A DNA stretch of 62,599 bases, counting the filler, from Nitrospinota bacterium (GTDB lineage: Bacteria > JADFOP01), in the NCBI GenBank assembly GCA_022562795.1. It is 3 parts of 3 records of this genome, joined end to end, with 100 filler letters (N's around TTAATTAATTAA, not from the genome) between each part and the next. Parts side by side here need not be neighbours in the genome. Positions count along the whole stretch, not along the records: positions 1 to 25,187 come from JADFOP010000034.1; 2 more parts are not named here. One strand, given 5' to 3'. Position numbers and translations under genes: made by a program. Shown here piece by piece: positions 3,291-49,512 of the stretch; positions within the stretch are counted from its first letter, which is position 1; every line of letters starts with the position of its first letter. Below the pieces are notes generated by a model. The model was not told the origin of the DNA. It did not search any database and saw nothing but the letters and a program-made list of their open reading frames with translations.

Positions 3291-4023
3291 GGGCCCCGTT
3301 CGTCTTCAGACCCTCCTGGCGCGGGCAGGCGTGGCCTCCCGCCGCCGGGCAGAGCGGATGATCGAGGCCGGCCGGGTGGCGGTCAACGACAGTGTCGTTC
3401 GCACTTTGGGAACAAAGGCCGACCCGGCCTGCGACTCAATTACCGTCGACGACAAACCACTGCCCCCCTTCGAGCCGCCCGTTTACTACCTCCTTCACAA
3501 GCCTGCGGGCTTCCTCTCGACGATGAAAGACCCCAGGGGGCGGCCTACGGTGGCCGATTTGCTAGAGGCCATCCCCCAGCGGGTCTACCCGGTCGGGAGG
3601 CTCGACGCCGACACCGAGGGCCTCCTGTTGGTCACCAACGACGGCGCCGCCGCCCAGGCGATACTCCACCCCAGCCACCAGGTGACGAAGACCTACAGTG
3701 CGCTGGTGGACGGGCATCCTTCTCGGGAGGCAATGGCTCGGCTCCGAGGTGGGGTGGAGCTGACCGACGGCCCGACGGCTCCGGCTCGGGCCCGTATCCT
3801 TAGGCGGCGGGGGGGCGAGACCTGGATCGAGCTTACACTAACAGAGGGGCGCAAGCATCAGGTAAAACGGATGTGCCGGGCGGTGGGCCACCCCGTGCGC
3901 CTGCTCCGTCGAACCGCGATCGCCTTCTTTACTCTGGAGGGGCTCGCTCCTGGGGAGACCCGCCGTCTGACACCTGCAGAGATCCGCCGCCTCCGAGCCC
4001 TCGGTTCGCCAACAAACGGTTGA
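3262..4023 (+). CDS. rluB: rRNA pseudouridine synthase (RluB/RsuA family)
   Basis: S4 domain (RLQ.LLARAGVASRR), VGRLD catalytic motif, EGRKHQVKRM; usual scpAB-rluB synteny. Confidence 0.88.
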   Translation: MRKGRPWRPEGPVRLQTLLARAGVASRRRAERMIEAGRVAVNDSVVRTLGTKADPACDSITVDDKPLPPFEPPVYYLLHKPAGFLSTMKDPRGRPTVADLLEAIPQRVYPVGRLDADTEGLLLVTNDGAAAQAILHPSHQVTKTYSALVDGHPSREAMARLRGGVELTDGPTAPARARILRRRGGETWIELTLTEGRKHQVKRMCRAVGHPVRLLRRTAIAFFTLEGLAPGETRRLTPAEIRRLRALGSPTNG

Positions 4024-4088
4024 CCCTCCTAGGGTTTCGTGCTAGGAGTGCAACCTACCGACGACAGGATCATCCGAGGAGGCCACCC

Positions 4089-21406: not shown

Positions 21407-23512
21407 ATGATGAGCCGGGAGAGCCGGTTGGCGAATGAGGCCAGCGCCTACTTGCGAAGCGCCACCCACCAGCCTGTGGAATGGCGCCCGTGGGGGGAGG
21501 AAGCCTTCGCCGAGGCGGCCTCGCAGGGCAAGCCCATTCTCCTGGATATCGGCGCCGTCTGGTGCCACTGGTGCCACGTCATGGACGGCGAGAGCTACGA
21601 GGACGAAGAGACGGCCGCCCTCATCAACGACCGCTTTATCGCCGTCAAGGTCGACCGGGACGAGCGGCCCGATGTGGACGTGCGCTACCAGAAGGCGGTA
21701 AGCGCCCTTACGGGCCAGGGCGGCTGGCCGCTGACGGCCTTTCTCACCCCTGAGGGTGATGTTTTTTACGGCGGGACCTACTTTCCCCCCGAGGACCGCC
21801 ACGGGCGTCCCAGCTTCAAAAGCGTCCTCAGGCAGGTTAGCGACCACTACAATAACCAGCAGGCGTCGGTCCTGCAGAACGCCCAGCGCATCGCCCAGGT
21901 CATGGAAGAGAAGACCTTCGCCCAGGCTACCCCCGGCGCCATCACCGACGAGCTCCTCGCAGGCGCCGTCACTCAAATGATGAGCGAGTTCGACCCGACC
22001 CACGGCGGCTTCGGCCGCGCGCCCAAGTTTCCGCACCCCGGGGCCCTGGAGCTGCTGCTTCGCAGGGCCCACCTCGCCCGCGACGGAAACGCAATGGCGG
22101 TGGTAGTAAAGACCCTCACAGGCATGGGCGCCGGTGGCATCTACGACCATTTGGCCGGCGGCTTCCACCGCTACTCGACCGACGAGCGATGGTGCGTGCC
22201 CCACTTCGAGAAGATGGCCTACGACAACGCCGAGCTGTTGCGAGTATACGTGCAGGCCTGGCAGGCGACCCGCGAGCCACTTCTCGAGGAGGTGGCCACC
22301 GGCATCATCCATTGGGTCGACGAGGTGGCGAGCGACCCGGCGGCGGGCGGCTTCTACGCGAGCCAGGACGCCGATGTGGGCCTCCACGACGACGGGGACT
22401 ACTTCACCTGGACGGTGGAAGAGCTCCAAGAGGTCCTCGACGGGGCCGACGAGCGCATCTTGGCGCTCCACTACAACATCTACGAGCGGGGCGAGATGCA
22501 CCACAACACCGCCAAGAACGTCCTCTTCCGCGACTTCTCGGCCGAGGAGATAGCCGAGCGGCTCTCGCTAGAGCCCGACGATGTGCGGGCCAGAATCGCC
22601 TCCGGGAAAAAGGCCCTTGTACAAGCACGCGACAAGAGGCCCACCCCTTTCGTCGACCCCACCCTCTACGTCAACTGGAACGGGATGATGGCCACCGCCT
22701 ACCTTGAGGCCGCCGCGGGCCTGGGAAGGGACGATTGCCGGGCGATGGCCGTCAAGACCCTGGAGCGGCTCTGGAGCGAGGATCTCACCGACGGCGAGGG
22801 CTTCCGCCACCGCGGCGGCGGCGACGGGGAGGCGCCGGGTGGGATGCTCGACGACCAGGTCCAGATGACCCGGGCGTTCCTCGCGGCCCACCAGGTCGAG
22901 GCCGAGCCGGTCTGGCTCGAGCGGGCCGAGACCGTGATGAAGATCATCCTCGATAATTACTGGGACGATGCCGGGGGCGGTCTTTTTGATACGGCCATCG
23001 GCCGCCGAGCAGAGGGGGGGCTCCGCTACCGCCACAAACCCATCCAGGACTCCCCTACCCCGGCGGCGAACGCCCTGGCCGCCCAGGCCTTAGGCCGGCT
23101 CCACGCGATCACCGGCAAGCTCCTCTATAAACACAAGTCGGAGGAAATTCTTAAAACCTTCGCCGAAGTCACGAAGAGCTCCGGCCTCTACGCGGCTAGC
23201 TACTTCCTCGCCCTGGATGAATTTTTGCACCCCTCCGCCCACGCCGTCATTTTAGGGCCCCGTGACGACGAACGGACCCGGGAGCTCTACAATGCGGCTT
23301 TGGGCGCATTCCGGCCCGGCAAGCTGCTCACGCTTCTCGAGCCCTCCGAAGCCTCCGACCACCCGGCGCTTCCCGAGCCGGCCCGGGCCATGGTGGCGGC
23401 TTACGCCGGAGAGCCCACGGCGTACATCTGCGCGGGGCTCGCCTGCGCCCAGCCAACGAGCGACCCGGCCGAGGTCGCCTCCACCGTGACGAGCTTCGGC
23501 CTGGGAACGTAA
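21407..23512 (+). CDS. Thioredoxin-domain protein, YyaL/SPATA20 (DUF255) family
   Basis: SAYLR...PVEWRPWG, WCHWCHVM, VDRDERPDVD, GGWPLT, PHFEKM.YDNA. Confidence 0.92.
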   Translation: MMSRESRLANEASAYLRSATHQPVEWRPWGEEAFAEAASQGKPILLDIGAVWCHWCHVMDGESYEDEETAALINDRFIAVKVDRDERPDVDVRYQKAVSALTGQGGWPLTAFLTPEGDVFYGGTYFPPEDRHGRPSFKSVLRQVSDHYNNQQASVLQNAQRIAQVMEEKTFAQATPGAITDELLAGAVTQMMSEFDPTHGGFGRAPKFPHPGALELLLRRAHLARDGNAMAVVVKTLTGMGAGGIYDHLAGGFHRYSTDERWCVPHFEKMAYDNAELLRVYVQAWQATREPLLEEVATGIIHWVDEVASDPAAGGFYASQDADVGLHDDGDYFTWTVEELQEVLDGADERILALHYNIYERGEMHHNTAKNVLFRDFSAEEIAERLSLEPDDVRARIASGKKALVQARDKRPTPFVDPTLYVNWNGMMATAYLEAAAGLGRDDCRAMAVKTLERLWSEDLTDGEGFRHRGGGDGEAPGGMLDDQVQMTRAFLAAHQVEAEPVWLERAETVMKIILDNYWDDAGGGLFDTAIGRRAEGGLRYRHKPIQDSPTPAANALAAQALGRLHAITGKLLYKHKSEEILKTFAEVTKSSGLYAASYFLALDEFLHPSAHAVILGPRDDERTRELYNAALGAFRPGKLLTLLEPSEASDHPALPEPARAMVAAYAGEPTAYICAGLACAQPTSDPAEVASTVTSFGLGT

Positions 23513-23550
23513 AAAAGCCCCCGACCTCCTCATCGGGGAAGTCGGGGGGG
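23511..23550 (-). terminator. Intrinsic terminator, probably bidirectional
   Basis: CCCCCGAC...GTCGGGGG stem followed by TTTTTT on the minus strand, between convergent genes. Confidence 0.7.
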
Positions 23551-23612: not shown

Positions 23613-23629
23613 GCCCCGCGCCGCGGGGC
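23613..23629 (-). promoter_or_regulatory. Putative SECIS for the C-terminal UGA, lying in the 3' UTR
   Basis: GCCCCGC-GGC-GCGGGGC hairpin starting 14 nt after TGA 23646-44, with G at the start of the loop. Confidence 0.6.
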
Positions 23630-23634
23630 TCTGC

Positions 23635-23853
23635 TTACACCCCTCAGGTGCCGCCGTATCCTACGATGGCCCGGCCATCTTCGACGATGGTTGGGACCTC
23701 CCTAACCCCGCCGTTGGCCTGAAGCATCTCCTGTAGCTTGGCAGGCTCGGCCCTCACGTTGTAGTAGGTTACCGGCCCCTTCTGCTTGTACGCATCCAGC
23801 GCATCGTCTGTATAGGGTCAGCCGGGTTTCCCGTAGATAATGACATCGCCCAT
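23635..23853 (-). CDS. UXX-star-type glutaredoxin-like selenoprotein with two Sec (72 aa)
   Basis: AAAGGAG RBS. MGDVIIYGKPG-U-PYTDDALDAYKQKGPVTYYNVRAEPAKLQEMLQANGGVREVPTIVEDGRAIVGYGGT-U-GV-TAA. The glutaredoxin fold (VPTI, VGY) continues past the first TGA. Absent from the ORF track. Confidence 0.88.
23789..23803 (-). promoter_or_regulatory. Putative SECIS for the first UGA, within the CDS
   Basis: UGCGC-UGGAU-GCGUA hairpin with its loop 19 nt after TGA 23820-18. Confidence 0.45.
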
Positions 23854-23975
23854 CCTGCATCTCCTTTCAAAAGAATACCGCAGGAATTTCTCGTTCTAAT
23901 ATTGGCCTTCTTCATGGGAAGTCAAGGGCTGCGGCAACCGCGCCGTCGTGCCAACGCCCGCCTTTCCCATACCCC

Positions 23976-24725
23976 TTACACCGTCAGGGTCATCAGGTCC
24001 TCGGCGATGGTGACGGGGCCGCCGTACTCCTTCTTACAAGGCCCGACGAGGTCCGCGCCCTCGCATACGGGGTAGAAGTGGACCAGCGCCAGGGCCTTCG
24101 CCTCGGACTCCGCGGCGATACGCCCGCAGAGGGTGGGCGAGAGGTGGACCTCTACCTTCAGCTCATCGGGGGTGGCGCATTCCAGGATCAGCAGATCGCT
24201 GCCGCGCGCGAGCCGAACAATCGCCTCGCAGTAGTCGGTATCGCCCGAGTAGGTGAGGCTCACGCCGTCGGCCTCGATACGGTAGGCGAGGCTCGAGGGG
24301 TGGTGGACGACGGGGGCAGCCTGTACGGACCAGCCATCCCCTTCCACCGGCTCGCCGCCGATCTCCTCTACGTCGATATCGAAATCGGTGGCCTCGACCC
24401 ACGGGTGGTAGGCGGCCTGGAGGCCCCGGAAGAAGGCCTCAAAACCCGGCCCGCCGTAGAGCCTCAAGGGGCCGGTTCTCAGAGCCTCTGGGTTTTTCGA
24501 GGCGAATACCAGCGGGACCAGGTCGGCCACGTGGTCCGGGTGGATGTGGGTGTAGAAGAAGTGTTCGACGTCGTTGATGTAGAGGCCCGTCGAGACTAGC
24601 TGGCGGAGCACCCCTGGCCCGGTGTCGAAGACCAGTGGCTCGCCCGCGGCCCGAACGAGCAGGCTCGTCGGCGCCCTTATCACCGAAGGGATGGCGGTTC
24701 CCGTCCCGAGAAAGGTGACCTCCAT
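23976..24725 (-). CDS. MBL-fold metallo-hydrolase, RNase Z-like
   Basis: FLGTG, THIHPDH, YSGDT. Confidence 0.88.
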   Translation of the reverse strand: MEVTFLGTGTAIPSVIRAPTSLLVRAAGEPLVFDTGPGVLRQLVSTGLYINDVEHFFYTHIHPDHVADLVPLVFASKNPEALRTGPLRLYGGPGFEAFFRGLQAAYHPWVEATDFDIDVEEIGGEPVEGDGWSVQAAPVVHHPSSLAYRIEADGVSLTYSGDTDYCEAIVRLARGSDLLILECATPDELKVEVHLSPTLCGRIAAESEAKALALVHFYPVCEGADLVGPCKKEYGGPVTIAEDLMTLTV

Positions 24726-24728
24726 CGT

Positions 24729-25187
24729 CTACGTCACCAGAACGGCCTTGCCGATGACGGCCCTGGCGCTCAACGCCTCCTGGGCCGCCCGGGCCTCCTC
24801 GAGGGGGTATGTGGCGTGGATGACGGGCTCAAGGCGGCCTTCGTCAACGAGCTTAAGGATGGTGGCCAGCTCCGAGCGCGTCCCGCCGGTCGAGCCGATG
24901 AGGTGGTGCTGCTGGAGGAAGAGGTTCCAGATGTTGAGGGTCGCCTCGCCCCCCGTATGCGCCCCGCAGGTAACGATCCGCCCGCCCCGGCTCAAGCTGG
25001 CCACAGCGTCATCCCATACCGCCTGGCCCACCATCTCGCAGACGACATCGGCCCCCTTCCCGTCGGTGGCCTCGCGGACGGCCTCGGCGATGTTTTCCCT
25101 CGTATGGTTGATTACGACATCCGCCCCGAGCTCGCGGGCCCTGGCGAGCTTCTCATCCGTCGAGGCGACCGCCACGAACCGCGCTCC
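24729..25187 (-). CDS. Zinc-binding dehydrogenase / quinone oxidoreductase (MDR family); 5' partial at gap
   Basis: LGADVVIN, GGRIVTCG, IGKAVL. Confidence 0.85.
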   Translation of the reverse strand, partial: GARFVAVASTDEKLARARELGADVVINHTRENIAEAVREATDGKGADVVCEMVGQAVWDDAVASLSRGGRIVTCGAHTGGEATLNIWNLFLQQHHLIGSTGGTRSELATILKLVDEGRLEPVIHATYPLEEARAAQEALSARAVIGKAVLVT

Positions 25188-25287
25188 NNNNNNNNNNNNN
25201 NNNNNNNNNNNNNNNNNNNNNNNNNNNNNNNTTAATTAATTAANNNNNNNNNNNNNNNNNNNNNNNNNNNNNNNNNNNNNNNNNNNN
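25188..25287. other. Assembly gap / contig linker
   Basis: N-run + TTAATTAATTAA (stops in all frames) + N-run. Confidence 0.97.
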
Positions 25288-49412: not shown

Positions 49413-49512
49413 NNNNNNNNNNNNNNNNNNNNNNNNNNNNNNNNNNNNNNNNNNNNTTAATTAATTAANNNNNNNNNNNNNNNNNNNNNNNNNNNNNNNN
49501 NNNNNNNNNNNN
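49413..49512. other. Assembly gap / contig linker
   Basis: N-run + TTAATTAATTAA + N-run. Confidence 0.97.

Follow-up and report, generated by a model that had tools for sequence, protein, structure and literature searches.

Does an apparently empty gap in a bacterial genome hold a small gene for a protein with two selenocysteine (Sec) residues, and what might two such residues do in so short a chain? The question is raised by a stretch of 62,599 nucleotides from a Nitrospinota bacterium, here called the window, which consists of three contigs separated by spacers, each a TTAATTAATTAA flanked by N's, at 25188-25287 and 49413-49512; contig C52 of the genome corresponds to window positions 1-25187 only. 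The gap lies in this first part, between a yyaL-like gene and a gene for an MBL-fold hydrolase, and it contains a 72-codon frame on the minus strand. The locus (23638-23853) is a real gene, and its product is a member of the already curated NF041114 family in the commonest, two-Sec form. We read it as a monocistronic NF041114 gene in which both UGA codons are decoded as Sec via two separate SECIS elements, and we give this reading a probability of roughly 0.85. The NF041114 family is common in sediment bacteria and has already been catalogued, and the locus presents nothing new in kind.

Layout of the locus and family membership

The features of the locus are as follows, in order of position along the window:

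21407-23512, plus strand: yyaL-like gene, convergent neighbour of the selenoprotein gene
23518-23548, minus strand: intrinsic terminator, a 12-bp stem and then a T-run, common to the convergent yyaL-like gene
23613-23629, minus strand: putative SECIS-2 hairpin in the 3' UTR, 7 G-C pairs, loop GGC at +25 from the U of UGA
23635-23853, minus strand: coding sequence of the UXX-star family 1 selenoprotein, 72 codons (23638-23853) and the TAA stop (23635-23637)
23644-23646, minus strand: TGA codon 70, read as Sec, in the context G-Y-G-G-T-U-G-V-stop
23789-23803, minus strand: putative SECIS-1 hairpin within the coding sequence, 5-bp stem, loop UGGAU at +23 from the U of UGA
23818-23820, minus strand: TGA codon 12, read as Sec, in the context Y-G-K-P-G-U-P-Y-T, at the first position of the glutaredoxin CxxC
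23851-23853, minus strand: start codon ATG, read directly
23861-23867, minus strand: ribosome-binding site AAAGGAG, 7 nt ahead of the ATG, read directly
23898-23925, minus strand: candidate sigma-70-like promoter (TTGACT, 16 nt, AATATT), 45 nt 5' of the ATG, a consensus match only
23976-24725, minus strand: MBL-fold hydrolase gene, the other flank of the selenoprotein gene

The frame is interrupted solely by the TGA codons at positions 12 and 70, and it contains no Cys codons. A preliminary description of the locus had reported the ribosome-binding site, the ATG, the 72-codon frame with its two TGA codons, the distances of the hairpins, and a product devoid of Cys, and all of these were confirmed by direct reading and translation. 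It had also held that the gene is overlooked by ORF calling; indeed, the frame is absent from the table-11 list of 67 ORFs of at least 40 aa found between 20000 and 28000. One sigma-70-like site was observed, against 0.1 expected in shuffled sequences. The terminator lies 64 nt past SECIS-2, which places SECIS-2 inside the transcript and shows that it is not itself the terminator. With its promoter-like site, ribosome-binding site, 72 codons and terminator, the selenoprotein gene looks, on its sequence, like a small transcription unit of its own. The terminator has a G-C-rich stem bordered by a run of A's at one end and a run of T's at the other, and it is bidirectional, serving both yyaL and the selenoprotein gene. 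The C-terminal part (148 aa, 24729-25175) of a zinc-type alcohol dehydrogenase / quinone oxidoreductase (ADH) extends to the contig end at 25187, by which it is probably truncated. The DNA of the locus was recovered in 9 studies, in a total of 18 run rows, and no RNA run is listed among them.

Profile searches, in which U was entered as C, assigned the read-through peptide to NF041114 (UXX-star selenoprotein family 1) with 101 bits against a cut-off of 72 (E 3e-29) over profile positions 1-70 of 70, in agreement with the UXX-star glutaredoxin-like layout that had been recognized in the preliminary description. Scored directly on DNA, the same profile gave 86.4 bits, with 2 TGA codons inside the match. 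The parent subfamily NF041212 (77.6 bits, cut-off 66) and the Pfam Glutaredoxin family PF00462 (35.3 bits, gathering score 22.9) were also matched. Scores below the respective cut-offs were obtained for NF041211 (UXX-star family 2; 41.5 bits against 100), NF047338 (UXX-star family 3; 35.4 against 97), NF045501 (HUGP/GUXX-star fusion; 38.1 against 325), TIGR02181 (Grx3 equivalog; 30.1 against 90) and TIGR02196 (28.4 against 88.55). The window protein, of about 8 kDa, shares 41-64% identity with the 104 distinct listed metagenome members of the family. An AF2 model of it, based on 50 sequences of the family, gave a mean pLDDT of 90.1 and the topology strand-helix-strand-helix-strand-strand, with no helix after residue 46. 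The best Foldseek matches of this model in the PDB are glutaredoxins (3qmx, 4tr1, 3grx and 7c10), with TMq up to 0.77.

The likely primary description of the UXX-star families is reportedly that of Haft and Tolstoy (mSystems, 2025). A 2026 review, in its available portion, lists the NF041114 family as 'Distant Grx-like protein 1', with the motif UxxT and 2 Sec per protein (PMC13188914). Its reference 61 for this entry appears to be the GOS paper, whose available text names only a 'Grx-like UxxC' family (PMC2398784). The 'UXX-star' literature, as represented by the available portion of the 2026 review, yielded no functional assay and no RNA or protein evidence for any NF041114 member (PMC13188914).

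The distribution of the family was followed in metagenomes, genomes and proteins. Metagenomes were scanned with a DNA pattern in which TGA was fixed at codon 12, and at least 120 stretches were recovered. The full layout (U12, 48-66 residues, U-x-x-stop) was present in 110 of the 120 listed loci, which yield 104 distinct proteins; the remaining 10 comprise 3 loci cut by contig ends, 2 with a longer tail past the second TGA, and 5 that are frameshifted or unrelated. The N-terminal motif among these 110 listed loci is U-P-Y-T in 87 and U-P-F-T in 23, and the C-terminal tripeptide is U-G-V in 76. Genomes drawn evenly from the phylum of genome G042 gave an NF041114 match above the cut-off in 95 of 401 cases. 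The 98 matches found there contain two in-frame TGA codons in 75 cases, one in 21 and none in 2, and in several of the one-TGA rows the match ends before profile position 70, so that the C-terminal codon is unscored. Among the window's genome and its 40 nearest genomes, 3 of the 41 carry an above-cut-off match, and that of G008 likewise has two TGA codons; the scan of the phylum of G008 covered 2 genomes only. Judged from these predicted genes, double-Sec is the usual form of NF041114 proteins.

A scan of 1.84 billion representative proteins returned 2112 matches at E ≤0.001 and 171 at E ≤1e-10, while a word-index protein search returned only 4 truncated matches. Four library proteins, P0017 (549 aa), P0019 (1034 aa), P0069 (710 aa) and P0093 (502 aa), have 3-4 separate matches to the family profile each and may be tandem or fused glutaredoxin-like repeats.

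Gene neighbourhoods were compared in 105 loci, namely the window and the 104 distinct listed metagenome loci. No conserved neighbour was found: no family occurs in more than 9 of the 105 loci, and none of the recurrent families includes the window's neighbours. The largest of them (each in at most 9 loci) are a cNMP-binding protein, an ECF sigma factor, RtcB, HtrA and similar, which are unrelated housekeeping or regulatory proteins. The preliminary description had pointed to YyaL as a possible redox partner. Its W-C-H-W-C motif (DUF255 match, 230 bits) and the convergence of the two genes are indeed there, but the partnership finds no comparative support in the 105 loci and was dropped. The convergent arrangement and common terminator indicate adjacency only, and not a shared function.

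Active site and possible roles of the two selenocysteines

U12 occupies the nucleophile position of the glutaredoxin CxxC motif, and Thr replaces the resolving Cys. The second invariant Sec, U70, is located on a Gly-rich C-terminal tail, and the chain ends 4 residues past G67-G68. DSSP assigns isolated two-residue bridges in the AF2 model at 52-53, just before cis-Pro54, and at 70-71; we infer from the model that these bridges pair with each other. On this basis, the following mechanism is proposed. The short Gly-rich tail with U70 would take the place of the last glutaredoxin helix and would fold back beside the cis-Pro loop (Pro54), where U70 would resolve or shuttle for U12, giving a reversible intramolecular diselenide. 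Cys12 relatives would form a selenenylsulfide instead of the diselenide. A U12/U70 diselenide in the window protein is plausible from the model; to the redox-pair mechanism as a whole, with tail docking, reversible diselenide and the selenenylsulfide of Cys12 relatives, we would assign slightly less than an even chance.

A more specific arrangement can be envisaged, in which the Sec-Gly-Val tail lies in the glutathione groove and pairs with the strand before the cis-Pro like the Cys-Gly of glutathione, acting as a built-in 'seleno-glutathione' arm with a U70-U12 diselenide. We consider it possible but doubtful. If it were true, the protein would be one of very few natural diselenide redox proteins; its potential would be unusually low, and its reduction would call for a strong, dedicated reductant.

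Alternatively, the two Sec residues could act as ligands of soft metals or metalloids (e.g., Hg, As, Cu) in binding, trafficking or detoxification, with no diselenide redox cycling. A flexible C-terminal selenolate near an active-site selenolate would, in our view, make a good bidentate site, and the arsenic metallochaperone ArsD is found among the weaker Foldseek matches (ranks 27 and 35, TMq 0.54-0.56). For the Sec of UXX-star proteins, the available portion of the 2026 review likewise suggests binding of a metal or an unknown substrate and not a redox couple (PMC13188914). That remark is, however, a suggestion rather than data; moreover, the top structural matches are redox glutaredoxins, and metal-resistance or transporter genes do not recur beside the gene in the 105 loci. 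We regard a purely metal-binding role as unlikely and favor the U12/U70 redox pair as the working model.

Decoding of the two UGA codons

According to the preferred reading, UGA-12 would be decoded via SECIS-1 inside the coding region and UGA-70 via SECIS-2 in the 3' UTR, the latter being situated there because only two codons and the stop follow U70. When the ribosome arrives at either UGA codon, the loop of the hairpin that follows would be bound by SelB carrying Sec-tRNA(Sec). The evidence for this reading comes from the codons themselves, from the RNA structures that follow them, and from the decoding machinery of the genome.

The codon-12 column is an invariant Sec across the 104 distinct listed metagenome homologues, whose retrieval pattern required TGA-12, and position 12 is Cys in 80 of 80 genome loci, whose retrieval pattern required Cys. 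These 80 Cys12 loci end in TGA, 2 codons and a stop in 43 cases and in TGA with 3-5 codons in 26; TGA is followed by at least 6 codons in 7 loci, and 4 have TAA or TAG without TGA. Past TGA-70, codon +1 encodes Gly in 79 of the 104 distinct listed loci, through GGG, GGC, GGT and GGA, and codon +2 encodes Val in 93, through all four GTN codons. This preservation of Gly and Val through synonymous codons argues that the two codons are translated and are under protein-level selection. True Cys forms ending in C-x-x exist as well (P0012, P0055, P0074 and P0140, 4 of the 17 fetched library proteins). Homologues with Cys or Sec at the two TGA positions, which the preliminary description had predicted, were thus found in the form of these C-x-x proteins and of the 80 Cys12 loci. 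Trp, the residue that would have spoken for a pseudogene or an error, stands at both Sec positions in 5 of the 17 fetched proteins (P0010, P0015, P0024, P0034 and P0137). All five read through the stop, as in P0015 with G-V-W-R-L-I-G. Since they run past a TGA stop, they represent gene calls made with TGA as Trp and not Trp homologues (compare loci L169 and L173), and the argument from Trp does not apply to this family. TGA is the commonest stop in the window's genome and closes 484 of 1120 long frames, which argues against a global reassignment of this codon.

RNAfold places the loop of SECIS-1 (UGGAU) 19 nt past TGA-12 and that of SECIS-2 (GGC) 21 nt past TGA-70, 12 nt beyond the stop; the SECIS-2 hairpin itself starts 5 nt past the TAA. 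Compared with dinucleotide shuffles of this GC-rich DNA, neither hairpin has the better fold (z +0.96 and -0.70), and a 5-bp hairpin appears by chance in about 40-53% of shuffled family sequences; hairpin energy was consequently dropped as evidence for SECIS elements. As these energies are within chance, the support for the SECIS elements comes from family comparison and from the HMM match given above. An Rfam search returned no match to a SECIS family and two sub-threshold sRNA matches only.

The family comparison reveals a covarying helix in both places. For SECIS-1, the regions after UGA-12 of 105 distinct sequences, aligned without gaps, contain a helix (columns 17-21 with 27-31) with 91.6% of cells paired, versus 12-58% when the helix is slid. 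It includes 62 double-change cells, a number reached by 0 of 500 shuffles, and one of its pairs, for example, occurs as C-G in 57 sequences and as U-A in 39. For SECIS-2, a MAFFT alignment of 107 sequences after UGA-70 contains a helix (columns 23-27 with 33-37) with 87.3% of cells paired, versus 19-52% when slid; the window's row, offset by 1-2 columns in this alignment, is counted among the unpaired cells. Compensatory changes occur in all 5 pairs of the SECIS-2 helix. The hairpins that had been placed after each TGA, the second beyond the stop, are thereby corroborated at the level of the family.

The loop starts cluster as well. The SECIS-1 loop starts at +22 in 63 of the 83 hairpins found (the family mode) and at +23 in the window, and the SECIS-2 loop starts within +21 to +25 in 98 of the 103 hairpins found (family span +19 to +25) and at +25 in the window. 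AGGUC, and GGU with closing C-A/U-G, are the most frequent loops of the family; these common loops presumably resemble that of E. coli fdhF. The nearly invariant loop G of the family (column 23) is present in the window's SECIS-1 only when the hairpin is shifted by 1 nt further along. In the family, the G-G of the SECIS-1 loop comes from the codon of the nearly invariant Arg19 (AGG or CGG); in the window, position 19 is Leu (CUG), and the loop G-G is moved one base on (23794-23798, alignment columns 22-26). As far as the alignments indicate, the Arg19 codon is a shared site of RNA and protein constraints.

These observations bear on a different reading of the 3' end, according to which only UGA-12 encodes Sec and UGA-70 is a true stop. 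The protein would then end with G-Y-G-G-T, and the hairpin beyond it would serve RNA stability or termination. Gene callers do halt Cys12 relatives at this very point (e.g., P0007), profile position 67 being where most of the 150 listed library matches end, and the energy of the downstream hairpin is, as noted, unremarkable. Additionally, termination at UGA competes with Sec insertion in bacterial Sec decoding, and some termination at UGA-70 is likely. A true stop, however, does not fit a second stop placed exactly two codons past TGA-70 in 110 of the 120 listed loci, the preserved Gly-Val, the known homologues with a Cys-x-x end, a SECIS-2 hairpin that covaries at a fixed distance from TGA-70, or the presence of a separate terminator further downstream. 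We consider this reading very improbable and retain Sec at both positions.

The machinery for Sec insertion is partly present in the genome bin, which comprises 2.15 Mb in 84 contigs and is 97.1% complete. The tRNA-Sec gene (selC) was found with 77.6 bits, and ARAGORN assigned the anticodon tca. The selD gene (C41:1-693, locus L009) itself contains Sec at G-G-G-U-A-C-K; it is cut by the contig start, and its C-terminal third is missing from contig C41. Neither selA (TIGR00474, PF03841) nor selB (TIGR00475 above the cut-off, PF09107) was found in the 97.1%-complete bin. The expectation that the organism encodes selABCD was thus borne out for selC and selD, and selA and selB did not appear in the assembly; the complete lack of Sec machinery that the preliminary description had named as an argument against the gene is not observed, given the tRNA-Sec and the Sec-containing SelD.

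Further glutaredoxin-like genes occur in the same genome. Three carry a TGA at the first CxxC position, at C48:5407-5601 (+), C78:14639-14836 (-) and C9:2368-2541 (-) (loci L023, L026 and L027), and the motifs of this set are T-U-P-H-C, T-U-S-S-C and H-U-P-Y-C. An all-Cys glutaredoxin-like paralogue is located at C7:18650-18844.

The selA and selB genes adjoin each other in G001, a genome of the same genus (locus L046), in G002, a genome of the same class, and in G008 and G021; G005 has neither gene, and its homologue is a Cys12 form with no C-terminal Sec. The selA-selB stretch of G001 was compared with four runs, from four studies, that contain the window's DNA, and in 4 of 4 runs, contigs cover parts of both genes. 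These contigs are about 82-86% like the operon of G001 (about 84%); run X1 provides a 1399-nt contig that spans 542-1940 of the G001 stretch with 224 differences, and run X9 a 1121-nt contig like the same stretch. The identity between flanks of the window's genome (G000) and G001 is 79.6% and 82.3%, and the matching divergence of the selA-selB contigs points indirectly to the existence of selA and selB. One X1 contig links the selB end with the ADH flank, whose place in the window's genome is 845 nt away from the end of contig C3; parts of the G001 stretch between selB and the ADH gene (3424-4075) are left uncovered by the four runs. In the window's genome, the regions that flank selA-selB in G001 correspond to C52:1805-3169 and C3:2173-2905, and neither of them directly abuts a contig end. 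The simplest reading is that selA and selB are absent from the bin through an assembly or binning gap, although the contigs may come from a sister population living in those sediments.

That there is no functional gene at all, the frame being a decayed glutaredoxin pseudogene, a sequencing error or a product of TGA read as Trp or Gly under another code, is hardly credible: the missing selA/selB and the Trp-bearing entries would favor it, but those entries bear the mark of TGA=W gene calls, both TGA codons coincide with two invariant Sec columns of 104 distinct listed homologues, TGA is the commonest stop beside a tRNA-Sec and a Sec-containing SelD, and the same DNA recurs in the run rows counted above.

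Significance and comparison with known systems

The family, its two Sec residues and the UXX-stop layout are already curated (NF041114) and covered by the available portion of the 2026 review (PMC13188914). What the locus adds concerns annotation: standard gene callers miss the gene or give a stump of 42-55 residues (P0001, P0056), and some pipelines put Trp at the Sec sites of NF041114 proteins. Additionally, the tiny size and wide occurrence of the family, together with a clear redox-pair hypothesis, would make it a convenient system in which to study natural diselenide chemistry and the decoding of a 220-nt message with two SECIS elements.

With the other members of NF041114, the window protein shares the U-P-[YF]-T motif, the G-G-x-U-x-x-stop C-terminus, two Sec residues, the length and the glutaredoxin fold. 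It differs from them in small details only, by Leu in place of the nearly invariant Arg19 and by Thr55 in place of Val, and its SECIS loops both lie at the far end of the family distance range. UXX-star families 2 and 3 and the HUGP/GUXX-star fusion have in common with it a glutaredoxin-like scaffold, a C-terminal Sec near the stop and a SECIS beyond the stop; in contrast, the relatives of these types encountered here keep C-P-Y-C N-terminally or have 3-5 codons past the Sec.

Classical dithiol glutaredoxins, such as E. coli Grx3 and Synechocystis GrxA, share the fold (TMq 0.73-0.77 to 3qmx, 3grx and 7c10), the nucleophile position, the cis-Pro loop (V-P) and the G-G motif past the last strand. 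Their active site is C-P-Y-C, whereas that of the window protein is U-P-Y-T, and the C-terminal helix that follows G-G in the classical proteins is missing here.

Mammalian thioredoxin reductase possesses a Gly-Cys-Sec-Gly C-terminal tail that is believed to move from a buried redox centre to the substrate and back. The window protein would resemble it in mechanism only, by having a Sec close to its C-terminus, on a tail that is flexible and rich in Gly, and a SECIS in the 3' UTR. The reductase is, however, an unrelated flavoprotein, its Sec pairs with an adjacent Cys and not with a distant Sec, and its SECIS is a eukaryotic one.

SelL and other UxxU proteins are proposed to form diselenides. 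UxxU rows such as NF041115 appear in the table of the 2026 review, as far as its available portion extends (PMC13188914). Like the window protein, SelL-like UxxU proteins contain two Sec residues in one redox or metal site of a thioredoxin fold. Their Sec residues are 3 apart, within one motif and with one SECIS region, whereas those of the window protein are 58 residues apart, each with a SECIS of its own.
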